Source: a virus
IMG/VR virus record: IMGVR_UViG_3300010367_000168
Coordinates: 1 to 64,000 of that record
Reading direction: 5' to 3' (one strand)
DNA: 64,000 nucleotides
Below, in pieces: positions 2-58,816 of the stretch. Below the pieces are notes generated by a model that saw only the letters and a program-made list of their open reading frames with translations, searched no databases and was not told the origin of the DNA. Position 1 is the stretch's first letter, and each line of letters opens with the position of its first letter. Both the position numbers and the translations under genes were made by a program.

Positions 2-490
2 ATCTGGGTCAAGCAGCACTTCGTGGTGTCGCGGGGCGACTACCACTGGATGCATGAGCCCTGCTGGTATGCGGTCCGCAAGGGCAAGACCGGGCACTAC
101 AACGGGGATCGGAAGCAGACCACCGTTTGGGAGATCAAGAACAACAACCCGATGGGTGCGGGCAAGGGCAAGGAGAAGACCTGGGATCACGGCACGCAGA
201 AGCCGGTCGAGTGCATGCGCAAGCCGATCGAGAACAACTCCTCCGCCGGCCAGGCCGTTTACGATCCCTTCCTCGGGTCGGGCACGACGCTGATCGCGGC
301 CGAGATGATGGGCCGCGCCGGCTACGGCTGCGAGCTGAACCCGGTCTATTGCGACGTGATCATTCGCCGCTGGCAGGAATTCACGGGCGAGGAGGCCCGC
401 CTGGACGGGACCGGCGAGACCTACGAGGCCGTCCAGGCCCGGCGCCTCCAGGCCCCGACGCACCCCGAGCTGGCCAAGACGGTCCAGTGA
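2..490 (+). CDS. DNA N4/N6-methyltransferase, C-terminal part (5' end outside window)
   Basis: Frame is open from the window edge. It carries the AdoMet motif DPFLGSGTT and the EPCWY..KGK region typical of beta-class N4/N6 DNA methylases that precede phage terminase genes. Confidence 0.8.
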   Translation: MWVKQHFVVSRGDYHWMHEPCWYAVRKGKTGHYNGDRKQTTVWEIKNNNPMGAGKGKEKTWDHGTQKPVECMRKPIENNSSAGQAVYDPFLGSGTTLIAAEMMGRAGYGCELNPVYCDVIIRRWQEFTGEEARLDGTGETYEAVQARRLQAPTHPELAKTVQ

Positions 491-7498: not shown

Positions 7499-7757
7499 GC
7501 CCTACAGCGACCTTTGGCCCAGCACCCCGGCGGCCGAGGAGCGGCCGGAGCTGGTCCTCAACGTCCGTGTCCTGGAGGGCGATCTCCAGCGGCTCCGGCT
7601 GCGCCGCGGCGACAAGCTCGTCCTCATGACGGACCGCGTGCTCACAGAGAACGAGCAGGTCCACATCATGCATGAGCATAAGCGGTCCTTCCCCGACCAC
7701 GAACTGATCGTCCTTCCGCCCGGCTTCCGGCTCGGCGTGATCGCGGCATCGGACTAG
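7491..7757 (+). CDS. hypothetical protein (88 aa)
   Basis: ATG 7491 overlaps the upstream stop. Plausible composition. Confidence 0.5.
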   Translation: MTEPYSDLWPSTPAAEERPELVLNVRVLEGDLQRLRLRRGDKLVLMTDRVLTENEQVHIMHEHKRSFPDHELIVLPPGFRLGVIAASD

Positions 7758-7760
7758 CCC

Positions 7761-9143
7761 ATGCGGATCTTCGGCCTCACCATCTCCAGGACCGCGGACG
7801 AGGCCAAGGCGGTGCCGGCCAATCTGCGCGGCCCATCCAATCGCGGCGGGTGGTGGCCGTTCGTCCGCGAGCCCTATGCGGGAGCGTGGCAGCAGAACGT
7901 CGAATGGTCCACCGACGAGGTGCTGGCCTATTTCGCCGTTTACCGCTGCATCAGCTTGATCAGCTCCGACATCGCCAAGATGGAGTTGATGCTGGTCAAT
8001 TGGGCCAATGGCATCTGGACCGAGACCGACAGCCCGGCCTTCTCGCCGGTCCTGGCCAAGCCGAACCCGTACCAGACGCGCATCCAGTTTTTCCAGTCGT
8101 GGGTGATCTCGAAGCTCGTCAACGGCAACGCCTACGTCCTCAAGGAGCGCGATCAGCGCGGCGTCGTGGTGGCGATGTACGTGCTCGACCCGTGGCGGTG
8201 CCAGCCGCTCATCGCCGAGGACGGCTCGGTCTACTATCAGCTCGCGGTCGACACGCTCAACGGGATCGAGAACAGCGTCGTCGTACCGGCCCGCGAGATC
8301 ATTCACGACCGGTGGAACACGCTCTACCACCCCCTCTGCGGGACCTCGCCGATCTTCGCTTGCGGCCTCGCCGCCATGCAAGGGCTCAAGATCCAGAACA
8401 ACTCGGCGGCGTTCTTCGGCAATGGGTCGCAGCCGGGCGGCATCCTGACTGCTCCTGGCGCGATCAGTGATGAGACCGCTACTCGGCTGAAGGCGCATTG
8501 GGACGCCAACTACAGCGGCACCAATGTCGGCAAGATCGCGGTGCTCGGTGATGGCCTCAAGTATGAGGCCATGGCGCTCTCTGCCGTGGACTCGCAGCTC
8601 ATCGAGCAGCTCCGGTGGACGGCCGAGGTGGTCTGCGCGGCGTTCGGGGTCCCTGCCTACATGGTCGGGATCGGCGCAACCCCGACCTACAACAACATCG
8701 AGGCGCTCTCGCAGCAGTATTACTCGCAGTGCCTCCAGATCCACATCGAGAGCATCGAGATCTGCCTCAACGAAGGGCTCGCGCTTCCAAAAGCCTACGG
8801 CACCCGCTTCTCGATCGACGATCTGCTCCGGATGGACACGGCCACGATGATCAAGGCCGAGGCCGAGGCCGTGGGCGCTGGCATCAAGGCGCCGAACGAG
8901 AGCCGGCTTCGGCTCAACCTCCCGCCGGTCAAGGGTGGCGCCACTCCCTATTTGCAGCAGCAGAACTACTCGCTCGCAGCCCTGGACGAGCGCGACCGCG
9001 GCGACCCTTTTGCGAAGCCGGCGCCACAACCGGCGCCCCAGCTCGCGCCGCCCGAGGCCGATTCCGAGGAGGAGGAGCCGACCGACGTAACCGCGGCCTT
9101 GGTCGCGCGGATCGAGCGCGCATGGGAGGCTGCTCATGTTTGA
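7761..9143 (+). CDS. portal protein (HK97 family)
   Basis: 460 aa. VLAYFAVYRCISLISSDIAKM, NGNAYVLKERD and QQYYSQCLQIHIESIE are typical of HK97-type portals. Acidic C-terminus. Confidence 0.9.
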   Translation: MRIFGLTISRTADEAKAVPANLRGPSNRGGWWPFVREPYAGAWQQNVEWSTDEVLAYFAVYRCISLISSDIAKMELMLVNWANGIWTETDSPAFSPVLAKPNPYQTRIQFFQSWVISKLVNGNAYVLKERDQRGVVVAMYVLDPWRCQPLIAEDGSVYYQLAVDTLNGIENSVVVPAREIIHDRWNTLYHPLCGTSPIFACGLAAMQGLKIQNNSAAFFGNGSQPGGILTAPGAISDETATRLKAHWDANYSGTNVGKIAVLGDGLKYEAMALSAVDSQLIEQLRWTAEVVCAAFGVPAYMVGIGATPTYNNIEALSQQYYSQCLQIHIESIEICLNEGLALPKAYGTRFSIDDLLRMDTATMIKAEAEAVGAGIKAPNESRLRLNLPPVKGGATPYLQQQNYSLAALDERDRGDPFAKPAPQPAPQLAPPEADSEEEEPTDVTAALVARIERAWEAAHV

Positions 9144-35441: not shown

Positions 35442-35769
35442 TGCCGGACGACTGCATCGGTGGCTCGAAAATCTGGCGCTCGCCAATGTGCAGGAGTTCA
35501 CGCTCTCGGATGACGCCCGGCTTTGGCGAGGGCTGGCGCCCTACCTTTACACCCTGGCCATCGTTCAGGCCCCGGTCCTGACCTACGACATTGATCGCTG
35601 GTGCTTCGACGACCCGGAGCTGGCGCGCCGATGCTTGGCCGCCTGGGACGGCCGCGGCGATCCGCCGGACGGATGGATCAAGCACGTCAACACGAACCGG
35701 TGCCGCCTCAACGGCGACCCGACCAAGGAGACCATCGGATGGCCCGAGCCGGTATTACGATCCCGTTGA
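35434..35769 (+). CDS. hypothetical protein (111 aa)
   Basis: Internal ATG overlapping the upstream stop region. Confidence 0.45.
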   Translation: MLDAGRLHRWLENLALANVQEFTLSDDARLWRGLAPYLYTLAIVQAPVLTYDIDRWCFDDPELARRCLAAWDGRGDPPDGWIKHVNTNRCRLNGDPTKETIGWPEPVLRSR

Positions 35770-36269
35770 TGGATTCGGAGGACGCGCGGCTCATTGCGGC
35801 GGCGGCCGAGGATTCGGTCGTGCCCTGCGGCTCGTGCCATGCATGTTGCCATAGCCCCGTTGAGGTGCAGCCCCACCGCGGCGACGACCCGGCCCTCTAC
35901 GAGCTTGCGGTCAACATGGATATGTCGGCGCCGAACCGCCACACCATGATCACGCTCAACCGCAAGCCGGATGGCTCCTGCTACGCGCTGAAGAACGGCC
36001 GCTGCACAATTTGGGACAAGCGTCCCGTGATCTGTCGCGCCTTCGACTGCCGGAAGCTCTTCGCCATGCACACCAAGGAGGAGCGCCGGACGCTGGTCGA
36101 GCTGAAGTATTTCAAGCAGGCCATCTTCGACGCCGGGCGCAAGCGATGGTCCACCCTGCTTGATGCCGAGGCTCTGCGCGCCGCCTGCAAGCGGGTGGGA
36201 TATGGCCGGATGGCCCTGGAGTTCATGGAGCGCCGCCGTGGCGTGGCGCCGAAAGGACCGAGATCATGA
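35769..36269 (+). CDS. YkgJ-family cysteine-cluster (CxxCxxCC) protein
   Basis: CGSCHACCHS ... CYALKNGRCTIWDKRPVICRAFDC. TGATG overlap at 35767-35771 (alternative ATG 35739). Confidence 0.6.
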   Translation: MDSEDARLIAAAAEDSVVPCGSCHACCHSPVEVQPHRGDDPALYELAVNMDMSAPNRHTMITLNRKPDGSCYALKNGRCTIWDKRPVICRAFDCRKLFAMHTKEERRTLVELKYFKQAIFDAGRKRWSTLLDAEALRAACKRVGYGRMALEFMERRRGVAPKGPRS

Positions 36270-42853: not shown

Positions 42854-42927
42854 TGGATCGGGCGGCTGGATTCGAACCAACGTTGCAGGGACCAAAGCCC
42901 CGTGTCCTACCGCTAGACGACGCCCGA
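42854..42927 (-). tRNA. tRNA-Gln(UUG)
   Basis: Manual cloverleaf of 74 nt: U1-A72 pair, D-loop AGCGGUA, anticodon loop CUUUGGU, T-arm GUUGG-UUCGAAU-CCAGC, encoded CCA. Confidence 0.8.
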
Positions 42928-42936
42928 GCGGGAGGA

Positions 42937-43025
42937 TGGCGGAGGGCGGAGGAATCGAACCCCTAGCGTTCGTCACGCTACCCCGGTTTTCGGGACCAGT
43001 TGCCGGCCATTCAGCGGCGCCCTCC
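42937..43025 (-). tRNA. tRNA-Ser(CGA)-like, class II, with C33
   Basis: 89 nt with a 6-bp variable arm UAGCGU/ACGCUA and encoded CCA. The anticodon loop CCCGAAA has C instead of the near-invariant U33. G8 and an A-C mismatch in the T stem are also unusual. Confidence 0.55.
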
Positions 43026-43026
43026 G

Positions 43027-43115
43027 TGGCGGAAGGGGAGAGGATCGAACTCTCGCGAGGACTGGCCCCGGCTACGGTCTAGCAAACCGACGCATTACCG
43101 CTCTGCCACCCTTCC
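43027..43115 (-). tRNA. tRNA-Ser(GCU), class II
   Basis: 89 nt. 3-bp D stem, anticodon loop UUGCUAG, 5-bp variable arm, perfect T-arm GAGAG-UUCGAUC-CUCUC, encoded CCA. Confidence 0.7.
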
Positions 43116-55867: not shown

Positions 55868-56169
55868 GCATCACGAGCGATGGGCTGACCGATGGTTTGC
55901 CGGTCGAGGGCTATCGGCCGCAGACCGATGAGGCGATTGCCCTGGTCAACGAGAACAAGCGCCTGGAGGAGCTGATCCTGCGCCGGCTCGATGAGCTGCG
56001 GGAGCTGGCGATCCAAGCCGAGAACGGTGGCAACAATCACCTGATCGACTTCCGCTGGTTCTCGATCGCGAGGACGCACATCGAGCAGGGCTTCATGGCC
56101 CTCAACAGGTCGATCTTTCAGCCGAGCCGCGTTTCCCTGCCCTGGGGCGTCGGAAAGCCCGAGGAGTGA
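55864..56169 (+). CDS. Acb2-like cyclic-nucleotide sponge candidate
   Basis: ~100-aa helical protein. EGYRPQTDEAIALVNENKRLEE...DFRWFSIARTHIEQGFMALNRSIFQP matches my recollection of the Acb2-type family, including the 15-residue Tyr-to-Lys spacing. Memory-based. Confidence 0.4.
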   Translation: MSITSDGLTDGLPVEGYRPQTDEAIALVNENKRLEELILRRLDELRELAIQAENGGNNHLIDFRWFSIARTHIEQGFMALNRSIFQPSRVSLPWGVGKPEE

Positions 56170-56372
56170 TGATGGGATCGTTCCTCAATTGGCTTTGGGG
56201 GCCCGAACCCGAGTTCAAGCAGGACGAGGCGCTCCCGTTCCTCCGCTGGCGCGACGGCCGCCTGCTCCGCCCGCGGGTGCCCCCGCCGGTCCAGTACATC
56301 ATCCAAGGGCCTCGGTTGCCGTGGGTGAACGAACACAAAATGCGGGGCCGCCGCCCCGAGGATCTCCGTTGA
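56166..56372 (+). CDS. hypothetical protein (68 aa)
   Basis: ORF track. Overlaps neighbours at both ends. Confidence 0.4.
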   Translation: MMMGSFLNWLWGPEPEFKQDEALPFLRWRDGRLLRPRVPPPVQYIIQGPRLPWVNEHKMRGRRPEDLR

Positions 56373-57076
56373 TGCTCCGCCTCCTCGATCTCTTCGCCGG
56401 CATCGGCGGCATGAGCCTCGGGCTCCAACGCTCGGGTCATTTCCGCCCGGTGGCGTTCTGCGAGATCGACCCGTTCTGCCACCACGTCCTCCGAAAGCAT
56501 TGGCCCGAGGTTCCGATCTATGGCGATGTCCGATCCCTCGACCGAGCCCGGCTTGCCGCTGCCGGAATTGCCGTCGACGCGATCTGCGGCGGCTTCCCCT
56601 GCCAGGACATCTCGGCCGCTGGGCGAGGTGCGGGGCTTCATGGCTCCCGTTCCGTTCTCTGGCGTGAGTTCGCTCGACTGCTTGGCGATCTTCGACCGAG
56701 ATACGCGATCGTGGAAAACACCGATGCCCTCACTTTTCGCGGGCTCGGGATCGTTCTCGGAGACTTGGCCGCGCTCGGGTTCGATGCGGTCTGGCATTGC
56801 ATACCGGCTGCCGCCATTGGTGCCCGCCACCTCAGAGAGCGGGTCTGGATTGTGGCCTACACCGATCGCTCGGGATTGGAAGAGCAGTGCTACCGCCACG
56901 CGCCAGAACTCGCGGCCGCTTTCGGAACACATGCCTGGGGCTTTGAACCCGAATTGGATCGAGTGGCTCCTTGGCTTCCCTATCGGGTGGACCGCGTTCG
57001 CGCGCTCGGCAATTCCGCGGTCCCGCAAATCCCGGAGATCATTGGCCGTCTAATCGGCAACCTGGAGGCAGCGTGA
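56372..57076 (+). CDS. DNA (cytosine-5)-methyltransferase, short form
   Basis: Motifs DLFAGIGG (I), GFPCQDIS (IV), IVENT (VI), RERVWIV (VIII) and GNSAVP (X). Only 234 aa, so a very small target-recognition region. Confidence 0.85.
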   Translation: MLRLLDLFAGIGGMSLGLQRSGHFRPVAFCEIDPFCHHVLRKHWPEVPIYGDVRSLDRARLAAAGIAVDAICGGFPCQDISAAGRGAGLHGSRSVLWREFARLLGDLRPRYAIVENTDALTFRGLGIVLGDLAALGFDAVWHCIPAAAIGARHLRERVWIVAYTDRSGLEEQCYRHAPELAAAFGTHAWGFEPELDRVAPWLPYRVDRVRALGNSAVPQIPEIIGRLIGNLEAA

Positions 57077-57753
57077 TCCACTATCACGGGACGCCGATCT
57101 CCCCGGTGATCGAACGGCAGAAGATGGCCGGCAAGCATTTCTGCGTCTCGTTTGAGCGGCCGGACGATGCCGAATGGTGCCTCGCCAACGGGCAGTCGGT
57201 GCTGTGGGACAATGGGGCGTATAGCGCCTTCCGCCACGGCAAGCCGCTCGACACCGGCAAGCTTTACGCATGGCTTGAGCGGCGTCTGGCGCAGCCGCAT
57301 TGGGCCATCATCCCCGACCGGATCGGCGGCGACATCGACGAGCAGCGGGCCATGGTTTCAGCCTGGCCGTTCCCGAGGACCCTCGGGGCGCCGGTCTGGC
57401 ACATGGCGCTGGAGATCGACTACCTGCTCGAACTGGCCGACGAGTGGCCGCGGATCTGCTTCGGCAGTTCCGCTCGGTACTGGCAGATCGGCAGCCCGAT
57501 TTGGGAGCGCCGTTGCGACGAGGCGTTCAACGCCTTGGCCAAGCGCCACCCGCGGTTGCCTTGGGTCCACATGCTGCGTGGCCTCGCCCTGGCCGGTGAC
57601 CGCTGGCCCTTTGCTTCGGTCGACAGCGCCAACGTCGGCCGCAACTTCAAGACCCTCAACACGTGCCCCGAGCGAATGGCCCGCCGTCTCGACGCCATCC
57701 AGTGCCCGATCATCTGGACCCTGCGGATGGTGCAACAGGATCTCGTCGCATGA
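57073..57753 (+). CDS. dpdA: DpdA-like (TGT-superfamily) DNA transglycosylase candidate
   Basis: VLWDNGAYSAF resembles the DSGGFQ/DSGSYQ catalytic-Asp motif, and FASVDSANVG resembles the ..FDSA.. motif of archaeal-type TGT/DpdA. GTGA overlap with the MTase and ATGA overlap with the transporter gene. Confidence 0.55.
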   Translation: MIHYHGTPISPVIERQKMAGKHFCVSFERPDDAEWCLANGQSVLWDNGAYSAFRHGKPLDTGKLYAWLERRLAQPHWAIIPDRIGGDIDEQRAMVSAWPFPRTLGAPVWHMALEIDYLLELADEWPRICFGSSARYWQIGSPIWERRCDEAFNALAKRHPRLPWVHMLRGLALAGDRWPFASVDSANVGRNFKTLNTCPERMARRLDAIQCPIIWTLRMVQQDLVA

Positions 57754-58259
57754 TGCTCCTGACCCTCTACGTCCTCACAGTGCCGGCCGCGAATTGGCTG
57801 ATCGGAAACGTCGGCCGCTGCGTCGTCGAAGGGCCGTGCCTGATCCCGGTCGGCTTCGGCCTTGAGGCCCCGAGCGGCGTGCTCATGGTCGGCCTGGCGC
57901 TTGCCCTCCGCGACGCCATCCAGCGCCGCCACGGGCTCGCTCCAGCCTTTGGTGCCATCGGGCTCGGCTGCTGCGTGTCGATATGGGTCGCGCCGGACGC
58001 GCTGGTGGCCGCCTCGGCAGCGGCCTTCCTGTCCTCCGAGTTGGCCGACCTTGCCGTCTACACGCCGCTCCAGCGGCGCCGGCTGGTCCTGGCCGTGCTC
58101 GCCTCCGGTGTCGTCGGCGCCGCCGTCGATAGCGCGCTCTTCCTGTGGATCGCGTTCGGGTCGTTGGACTTCTTTGCCGGCCAGATGCTCGGAAAGGTCT
58201 ACATGACCGTCGCCGCGGTCCCTCTCGTGCTCATGACCAGAAAGAGGGCTCCCGCATGA
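57750..58259 (+). CDS. yhhQ: YhhQ/VUT-family (queuosine-precursor transporter-like) membrane protein
   Basis: Polytopic. AAAFLSSELADLAVYTPLQRRR...ASGVVGAAVDSALFLWIAFGS parallels the YhhQ ..Q.LD..VF..L....S...G...DT..F..IAF.. signature. Confidence 0.65.
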   Translation: MMLLTLYVLTVPAANWLIGNVGRCVVEGPCLIPVGFGLEAPSGVLMVGLALALRDAIQRRHGLAPAFGAIGLGCCVSIWVAPDALVAASAAAFLSSELADLAVYTPLQRRRLVLAVLASGVVGAAVDSALFLWIAFGSLDFFAGQMLGKVYMTVAAVPLVLMTRKRAPA

Positions 58260-58816
58260 TCAGCACCCACAAGGATCGAACCTACGGCACCAAACGCGTT
58301 CAGGTCGGCGACCGCTGGCGCACCGACTTCCTGCTGCACTGCTCGGGATGTGGGGCCGAGGACACGATCCACATGGACCCGAACTGCAAGCCTGACCTGA
58401 TCGTCCAGAAGTTCGAGCGGATGGGCTGGAAGGTCGATGAGCGCAATCCGGCTCGGAACCTGTGTCCGCTCTGCCAGCCCCGCACCAACCCGAAGCCCAA
58501 GCCGAAGGAGGACGTGATGGCCGATCTGCCGAAGGGCCCCACGCATGAGCAGCGCAAGCGCATCGCGCAGCAGCTCCGCGGGGTCTTCGACGAGGCTCGT
58601 GGCTGCTACCTCGACGCGCACACCGATCAGTCGGTCGCTCAGGAATTGCAGATGCCGTGGGCTTGGGTTCGCGAGTGCCGGGATCTGCTCGGCTACGAGA
58701 TCAAGATCGACCCCGAGATTGAGGCGCTTCGGAGCGAGTTCGCCACCCTGGCCGACATGCTCGTCGCTGCCGAGGCCAAGCTCGCCGCGCTCGAAAAGAG
58801 GAGGCTCGCGTCATGA
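58256..58816 (+). CDS. hypothetical protein with Cys pairs and a C-terminal coiled coil (186 aa)
   Basis: ATGA overlap. CSGCG...CPLCQ. Confidence 0.45.
   Translation: MISTHKDRTYGTKRVQVGDRWRTDFLLHCSGCGAEDTIHMDPNCKPDLIVQKFERMGWKVDERNPARNLCPLCQPRTNPKPKPKEDVMADLPKGPTHEQRKRIAQQLRGVFDEARGCYLDAHTDQSVAQELQMPWAWVRECRDLLGYEIKIDPEIEALRSEFATLADMLVAAEAKLAALEKRRLAS

Follow-up and report, generated by a model that had tools for sequence, protein, structure and literature searches.

A DpdA-family gene and its VUT/YhhQ-type neighbour in a tailed-phage genome: a candidate salvage cassette for 7-deazaguanine modification of DNA

We analysed a 64,000-nucleotide stretch of viral DNA (positions 1 to 64,000 of IMG/VR record IMGVR_UViG_3300010367_000168; hereafter the window), starting from an original prediction that had joined three consecutive plus-strand genes into one DNA-modification module: a short C5-cytosine DNA methyltransferase (Dcm), a DpdA-like protein and a membrane transporter of the VUT/YhhQ family. 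The coordinates and calls of the three genes were correct (Table 1), and the analysis points to a smaller unit. With a probability that we put at roughly two in three, the second and third genes (57073-57753 and 57750-58259) constitute a salvage cassette of two genes that serves to modify the phage DNA with 7-deazaguanine, in which a transglycosylase would exchange guanine for a base brought in by the transporter. The case is built on the homology, conserved catalytic residues and fold class of the DpdA-like protein, on the linkage of its gene to VUT genes among relatives and on the absence from the window of genes for making the precursor, preQ0.

A short protein of the DpdA family

By sequence comparison, the 226-amino acid (aa) product of the middle gene is a member of the phage DpdA family. 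Against the PHROGs it matched phrog_887, 'queuine tRNA-ribosyltransferase', at 8e-35. When an alignment of 165 sequences of its family was compared by hhalign with the DpdA proteins of Enterobacteria phage 9g and Escherichia phage CAjan (DpdA1; Queuovirinae), the match had a probability of 96% (E-value [E] 4.5e-9) over 153 columns, corresponding to query residues 35-191; comparison of profile A1 with the 9g protein alone gave 90.7%. A tblastn search with the middle protein matched 105 phage records, and the DpdA of Pantoea phage MED16 was found at 35% identity (E 4e-28). The family comprises 864 representatives at 50% identity (E <=1e-3); relatives are encoded in more than 580 IMG/VR contigs or stretches, and prophages of Rhizobiales, Methylobacterium, Burkholderiales, Solirubrobacterales and other bacteria also carry copies.

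In an alignment of 28 sequences (diverse family members together with 9g and CAjan), residues D46, P107, H110, G131, H166, P179, D184 and S185 do not vary, and at least 90% of the sequences keep D82. The two segments in which the original prediction had recognised catalytic motifs fall on these positions: VLWDNGAYSAF includes D46, FASVDSANV includes D184 and S185, and their counterparts in the 9g and CAjan enzymes are LDSGAFSA and YSCDSS. The DpdA likeness proposed there is thus upheld by the motifs as well as by the PHROG and profile matches. H166 aligns with the histidine of the KIKVHGFG segment of 9g DpdA. We take it that its counterpart may be the 'position 196' histidine which Hutinet 2019 reports as absent from DpdA2, the correspondence of the numbering being an assumption of ours. 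In the scheme drawn for bacterial DpdA, Asp95 is the acid/base, Asp130 and His181 read the base and Asp256 is the nucleophile (PMC10164549). Judged by order and spacing, residues of the middle protein would correspond to these four positions of bacterial DpdA (7UI4), with predicted roles of acid/base for D46, base binding for D82 and H110, and nucleophile for D184.

The AlphaFold2 model of the protein, which is confident (pLDDT 84, pTM 0.82), has eight beta-alpha units, and we consider the predicted structure to be a minimal TIM-barrel-like fold. In a Foldseek comparison with the viral models of BFVD, the matches (E 7e-7 to 2e-4, TM-score 0.47-0.66) were for the most part proteins that bear the annotation queuine tRNA-ribosyltransferase, the best of those so annotated having TM-scores of 0.55-0.66. 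They come from Arthrobacter, Mycobacterium, Microbacterium, Dinoroseobacter and Sulfolobales viruses.

The middle protein has in common with the 9g and CAjan DpdA1 a homologous barrel core, the DxGAFS and (S/A)xDS motifs, both conserved histidines and the lack of a zinc motif. It differs from them (306-317 aa) in being devoid of their N-terminal ~30 and C-terminal ~90 residues, and identity is ~19%. The 'singleton' DpdA proteins (MED16; Salmonella SEN1 and SW9; lambdoid SfI, HK106 and BTP1) belong to the same family, with 33-35% identity over ~85-95% of the length. As in those phages, DpdA is the sole deazaguanine gene of the window and is located among early or nin-region genes. At 226 aa, the candidate would show that DpdA can be reduced to a bare barrel.

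Linkage of the DpdA and VUT genes

The product of the third gene was assigned to the VUT/YhhQ family, as predicted from the sequence, by Pfam Vut_1 (2.4e-11, 44.7 bits for a gathering cut-off of 27.2 bits) and by phrog_4899 (3.4e-35). Hydropathy shows hydrophobic stretches over most of its 169 aa. The E. coli preQ0/preQ1 importer YhhQ (COG1738) is in the same Pfam family but is longer (221 aa); hhalign paired it with the profile of the window's VUT family at 89.6% probability over 101 columns. No sequence relative of YhhQ was found in the PDB. The CAjan protein gp41, a 'putative preQ0 transporter' which is short as well (159 aa) and likewise encoded in the modification cluster, is 39% identical (E 6e-13). 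From this identity and from the genomic context, we infer that the window VUT imports a 7-deazaguanine base.

The context was assessed by counting linkage in those loci where the sequence extends 1.5 kb or more to each side of DpdA, a VUT gene being scored when it lay within 1.5 kb. One was present in 50 of 55 viral contigs, in 30 of 61 contigs from bacterial genomes and in three of five isolate phages (Pseudanabaena phage Pam5 and Rhizobium phages RHph_N3_2 and RHph_X2_30). For all assessable loci together the count is 83/121, in either order and invariably on the same strand; within the viral set, VUT is upstream of DpdA in 24 loci and downstream in 26. Same-strand linkage of this frequency with a shifting gene order is hard to explain without a shared function, and it gives strong context support to the idea of precursor import put forward in the original prediction. 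An adjacent VUT is usual in the clade to which the window belongs (Alphaproteobacteria, cyanophages, Solirubrobacterales and others), unlike MED16 and SfI, which have none. For comparison, ~9% of the dpd islands of bacteria have YhhQ with them (PMC11888242). The salvage hypothesis is already in the literature, as are DpdA-only phages and yhhQ genes of phages; what is new here is the tightness of the DpdA-VUT linkage, which is the rule in this clade.

Clustering of the neighbouring open reading frames (ORFs) revealed no third conserved partner of DpdA and VUT. A C5-methylase gene is found within ~1.5 kb of DpdA in only ~8 of ~160 related loci, as read from coordinates. The conserved functional unit is the DpdA-VUT pair and Dcm an occasional neighbour, so that the module of three genes did not hold. 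The chain of overlapping start and stop codons on which it had been founded is real at all three places: GTGA (57073-57076) links Dcm to the DpdA-like gene and ATGA (57750-57753) links the latter to VUT, but TGATG (56370-56374) joins an upstream 68-aa ORF to Dcm rather than two of the named genes, and a further ATGA (58256-58259) links VUT to the gene that follows. Junctions with overlaps of 1 or 4 bases recur in ~12 gene pairs between 52400 and 60617; they are therefore a trait of the entire early operon and do not delimit a unit of three genes.

A few relatives carry deazaguanine genes at the same place. The order is VUT-QueC-DpdA in loci L051 (6999-8645) and L060 (6743-8395), QueC being identified by PF06508 at ~1e-42. 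This arrangement points to the import of an earlier precursor than preQ0, e.g. 7-carboxy-7-deazaguanine (CDG), or to a QueC-type amidation step. A weak PTPS (QueD-like) gene stands beside DpdA in Caulobacter phage DMCA and in L107, and a radical-SAM neighbour in L151.

The window itself, unlike the genomes of 9g and CAjan, which encode FolE, QueD, QueE and QueC, holds no gene for preQ0 synthesis, in agreement with the original prediction. With 9g FolE, QueD, Gat-QueC and QueE and with the QueD of DMCA as queries, no tblastn match in any of the six frames of the window had an E below 0.06. When 61 non-structural ORFs were scanned with Pfam, domains of the Que, QueF, ArcS or DpdC type did not turn up, and no DndB-like or DUF6884 protein appeared in the scans of the window ORFs. 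One candidate tailoring enzyme was considered and excluded from the system: the plus-strand ORF at 35601-36269 encodes a CxxCxxCC protein that matches PF03692 at 29 bits, and the paper describing the dPreQ1 methylase DpdM counts E. coli YkgJ, which binds zinc or iron, among the homologues of that enzyme, but the protein had no tblastn match in 50,697 phage records.

A proposed salvage route to modified DNA and its alternatives

Characterised relatives indicate what such an enzyme can do. The 9g DpdA, expressed alone in E. coli, inserts dPreQ0 into DNA (PMC6884629), and deletion of dpdA from CAjan abolishes its modification (PMC7544227). [quoted passage not shown] A group of 76 phages with DpdA and no synthesis genes (group 3) was described by Hutinet et al. 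2019; these DpdA-only phages were the largest group in that survey of phage 7-deazaguanine genes.

In the cassette as we conceive it, DpdA and VUT would be expressed from the long rightward early operon together with replication and anti-defence genes. VUT would boost the intracellular amount of a 7-deazaguanine base, most likely preQ0 or preQ1, taken from outside, on top of the output of the host queuosine pathway. After replication, the minimal DpdA would swap guanine in double-stranded phage DNA for the imported base by the double-displacement chemistry of DpdA and the tRNA-guanine transglycosylases (TGTs), D184 acting as the nucleophile that forms a covalent enzyme-deoxyribose intermediate and D46 as the general acid/base. 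Because the phage has neither preQ0 synthesis genes nor a recognisable tailoring enzyme, the final base would be dPreQ0, dPreQ1 or dADG derived from the host. Going by other DpdA-only phages, it probably takes the place of a minor share of G, in a sequence motif. The Dcm upstream of the pair, composed of an alpha and a nested beta chain (see below), would work independently and add a second, unrelated mark. The 'multilayered anti-restriction' foreseen for the combined marks is not established: in MED16, dADG replaces only ~0.13% of G and gives little restriction protection in vitro (PMC8306585). The main uncertainties concern the identity and level of the base, the need for VUT when the host makes preQ0 and the capacity of so small a DpdA to bind DNA unaided.

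Several observations weigh against the cassette. A Foldseek search of the PDB with the model of the 226-aa protein found weak generic TIM barrels only (best E 6e-4, TM-score 0.35), the 50 matches listed including no TGT and no bacterial DpdA (7UI4). For the TGT/DpdA fold expected in the original prediction the outcome is mixed, the BFVD models and the profile comparison with DpdA1 speaking for it and the listed PDB matches lending it no support. Searches of PDB sequences with profile hidden Markov models A1 and A4 gave chance matches only, and hhalign against one E. coli TGT sequence found no match, this template being too weak to count as evidence. Pfam and NCBIfam scans of the protein were also negative, the Pfam TGT model included; the latter miss is uninformative, because the validated 9g and CAjan DpdA miss Pfam TGT too. 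Bacterial DpdA (Dpd island of Salmonella Montevideo, 7UI4) resembles the middle protein in being a transglycosylase of TIM-barrel type in which three Asp residues and a His serve catalysis or binding, but it exceeds 400 aa, contains insertions Ins1-3 and Ins8 and a zinc site (CXCX2CX22H), needs the DpdB ATPase and is accompanied by DpdC, which makes dADG (PMC10164549). The window has none of these. Among them, the zinc site and the DNA-binding Ins8 are conserved in bacterial DpdA (PMC10164549); both are missing from the middle protein, whose sequence stops ~40 residues past the nucleophile Asp. On the transporter side, the VUT protein scored under the NCBIfam equivalog cut-offs (33.5 versus 50.95 bits for TIGR00697, 18.2 versus 252 bits for PRK11212), and no preQ1 riboswitch was found in the window near the cassette or its VUT gene, or in six related loci. 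Lastly, some DpdA-only phages have no detectable modification, e.g. Orion as cited in PMC8306585, and deletion of the yhhQ gene that lies within the CAjan cluster was without effect (PMC7544227).

The CAjan deletion is also an argument for a different arrangement, in which the DpdA-like enzyme uses host-made preQ0 or preQ1 only, and VUT is dispensable or carries another substrate, e.g. another vitamin-like compound. The score below the TIGR00697 cut-off would fit this, as would the lack of an adjacent VUT in about half of the prophage loci and in two of the five isolate phages. We regard it as unlikely. The yhhQ deletion was without effect because CAjan makes its own preQ0 (PMC7544227), and the result is therefore not transferable to a phage without synthesis genes; moreover, the same-strand linkage in nearly all viral loci persists despite altered gene order.

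A second alternative, which appears to us distinctly improbable, is that the cassette serves RNA or host physiology. The host would profit from queuosine precursors that VUT salvages and the DpdA-like enzyme inserts into tRNA, or else the host DNA would be modified in lysogeny, tuning translation or marking the lysogen. The family does descend from tRNA-guanine transglycosylases (PMC10164549), many of its members reside in prophages of bacterial genomes, and the window phage is itself probably temperate, given its integrase and its helix-turn-helix domains of Cro/CI type. On the other hand, the nearest characterised relatives act on DNA (PMC6884629, PMC7544227, PMC8306585), and the middle protein has neither the insertions nor the zinc subdomain by which TGTs hold tRNA (PMC10164549). 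The only tRNAs of the phage, Gln and Ser, are without the GUN anticodon of queuosine targets, and the DpdA and VUT genes are placed within the early lytic operon among replication genes.

That the 226-aa protein is a TIM-barrel enzyme of other chemistry, e.g. a glycosidase or an aldolase-like enzyme, related to DpdA by remote ancestry only, is highly improbable: it would suit the transaldolases that lead the PDB fold matches and the failure of every Pfam and NCBIfam model, but those matches (TM-score ~0.35, root-mean-square deviation ~9 Å) are too poor to be meaningful, the positions common with DpdA1 (three Asp and two His) are invariant, and the family is linked to the metabolism of 7-deazaguanine by its QueC, QueD-like and VUT neighbours.

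The salvage cassette thus preferred may be taken one step further. It is conceivable, though we rather doubt it, that DpdA-VUT is a self-sufficient and widespread hypermodification system based on salvage only, in which the level of the modification, and perhaps the identity of the base, is set by environmental supply. If so, the inserted base could be preQ0, preQ1, queuine, CDG or an undescribed 7-deazapurine, and the chemistry of the phage DNA would hinge on an external micronutrient; the VUT-QueC-DpdA loci hint at uptake, in some relatives, of a precursor that precedes preQ0. In any event, the pair offers a simple two-gene system in which to test salvage-fed modification of DNA.

A two-chain cytosine methyltransferase and the early operon

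The short Dcm had been described as containing all core motifs. Its 234-aa product aligns to residues 12-174 of M.HhaI, that is motifs I-VIII, and then jumps to motif X (RALGNSAVPQI). Motif IX (NPNWIEWLLGFPIGWT) is not in this product; it is read in a +1-frame ORF nested in the gene (WPTP...NPNWIEWLLGFPIGWT), the translation of which matches phrog_1008 ('DNA methyltransferase') at 4.4e-22. Eight related loci, among which N-terminal identity falls as low as 38%, show the same two-frame layout, and a Met is found near the equivalent nested-frame start in all eight.

Substitutions between the window and L007, a 73.8-kb IMG/VR contig with a 98% identical copy of the middle protein, reveal which frame is coding. 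Their distribution over alpha-frame (f0) codon positions 1/2/3 is 3/1/20 in the N-terminal part, as expected if the alpha frame is coding, and 13/8/2 in the nested segment, as expected for the +1 frame; other sequence pairs show that motif X is coded in the alpha frame once more, so that the phase of substitutions goes from f0 to f1 and back to f0. The alpha frame is nevertheless held open across the nested ORF, with no stop in any of the eight loci, whereas codon permutation predicts 4-16 (P <=0.005 per locus; zero stops in 0/5000 permutations for three loci, P = 0.003 for the window). The alpha-frame segment beneath the nested region, at the place of the small domain, would then be a linker without coding constraint, a reading drawn from only 23 substitutions.

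As judged from these frame and substitution patterns, the Dcm is a two-polypeptide enzyme resembling M.EcoHK31I, with the beta chain nested. In M.EcoHK31I the alpha chain has motifs I-VIII together with X, and the beta chain, which has motif IX, has its whole coding sequence within the alpha gene, in a different frame; the enzyme needs both chains (PMC2836561). By analogy, both would be required here. The likeness is one of architecture, and there is a difference: the target recognition domain of M.EcoHK31I is assigned to alpha, whereas the nested frame under selection in the window also spans the WPTP region before motif IX. A double ribosomal frameshift was considered as an alternative; scored against phrog_363 or Pfam, an artificial f0-f1-f0 hybrid did not surpass the plain ORF. 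Two polypeptides are favoured because of this result and because the alpha frame is held open through the nested ORF. A reading of the Dcm as CmoX, which makes 5-carboxymethylcytosine, was also rejected, the motif being GFPCQ and not SPPC, with no CmoA present (PMC12783734). The nested product matches only 49 protein clusters in a database of 5.8 billion clusters; gene callers nearly always overlook the nested ORF, so that such enzymes are annotated as odd, truncated Dcm proteins.

In L007, an HNH endonuclease ORF (7547-7903) is inserted in the Dcm gene between the stop of the nested ORF and motif X. The nested frame stops just before the ATG of the HNH ORF, and a restart ATG (MKNRVNRVRALGNS...) overlaps the HNH stop. 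Either the alpha chain is split or the insertion is a mobile intron-like element.

Table 1. Positions of the genes and ORFs of the window discussed in the text
Feature	Position	Strand	Evidence
DpdA-family DNA guanine transglycosylase candidate, 226 aa, GTG start	57073..57753	+	phrog_887 8e-35; hhalign; conserved residues; model
Short VUT/YhhQ-family membrane transporter, 169 aa, ATG start	57750..58259	+	Pfam Vut_1; phrog_4899; hhalign; linkage
C5-cytosine DNA methyltransferase alpha chain (Dcm), 234 aa, ATG start	56372..57076	+	Pfam DNA_methylase 1.5e-33; phrog_363 6e-65
Nested +1-frame ORF, predicted methyltransferase beta chain, 177 aa	56520..57053	+	WPTP segment and motif IX (EWLLGFPIGWT); phrog_1008
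68-aa ORF, unknown function	56166..56372	+	TGATG junction with Dcm; no Pfam or PHROG match; L007 copy conserved at 84%
Downstream gene, unknown function, cysteine pairs	58256..58816	+	ATGA junction with VUT; phrog_21667 at 4.5e-24
N6/N4 DNA methyltransferase, C-terminal part	23..490	+	Pfam N6_N4_Mtase 1.2e-18, profile positions 133-219 of 221; PADLOC MTase_II 1.8e-34
Acb2/Tad1 hairpin-domain protein, 101 aa	55864..56169	+	PF24729, 2.8e-18, 66 bits for a 27-bit cut-off
Primase-helicase, 551 aa	54212..55867		
tRNA-Gln(TTG) and tRNA-Ser(GCT) genes	42854..43115	-	

By its gene content, the window (65.7% G+C) reads as a nearly complete tailed-phage genome: long plus-strand ORFs fill the first 28 kb, and in addition to the integrase and the Cro/CI-type domains there are a small-terminase domain, an ERF recombinase and a primase-helicase. 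An identical middle protein is present on a 68-kb JGI contig. Within the early operon we saw no convincing internal promoter or terminator, and no PADLOC defence-system model was matched by DpdA, VUT or their unnamed neighbours. The gene downstream of VUT was present, among related loci, in L007 only, and is not a conserved partner. As for the N4/N6 methylase that had been noted at the start of the window, the assignment stands, but the N6_N4_Mtase match (23-487) covers only the C-terminal portion of the profile; the gene is probably truncated by the window edge.

Other genes of the window may act against host defences. The Acb2/Tad1 hairpin-domain protein, whose gene belongs to the same operon and lies directly upstream, is a candidate anti-CBASS or anti-Thoeris protein, a sponge that would sequester cyclic-nucleotide immune signals. 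Among the non-structural ORFs between ~28000 and 46000, Pfam identified a Macro domain (2e-16), a TumE toxin (3e-15), a calcineurin-like phosphoesterase (1e-14) and a class I SAM methyltransferase (8e-10), which suggests the presence of more host-takeover or anti-defence genes. Finally, the primase-helicase of L007 (3511-6426) has 971 aa against 551 aa for the window copy; the difference is due to an extra block of ~400 aa, absent from the latter, which terminates in HN followed by S and looks like an intein.

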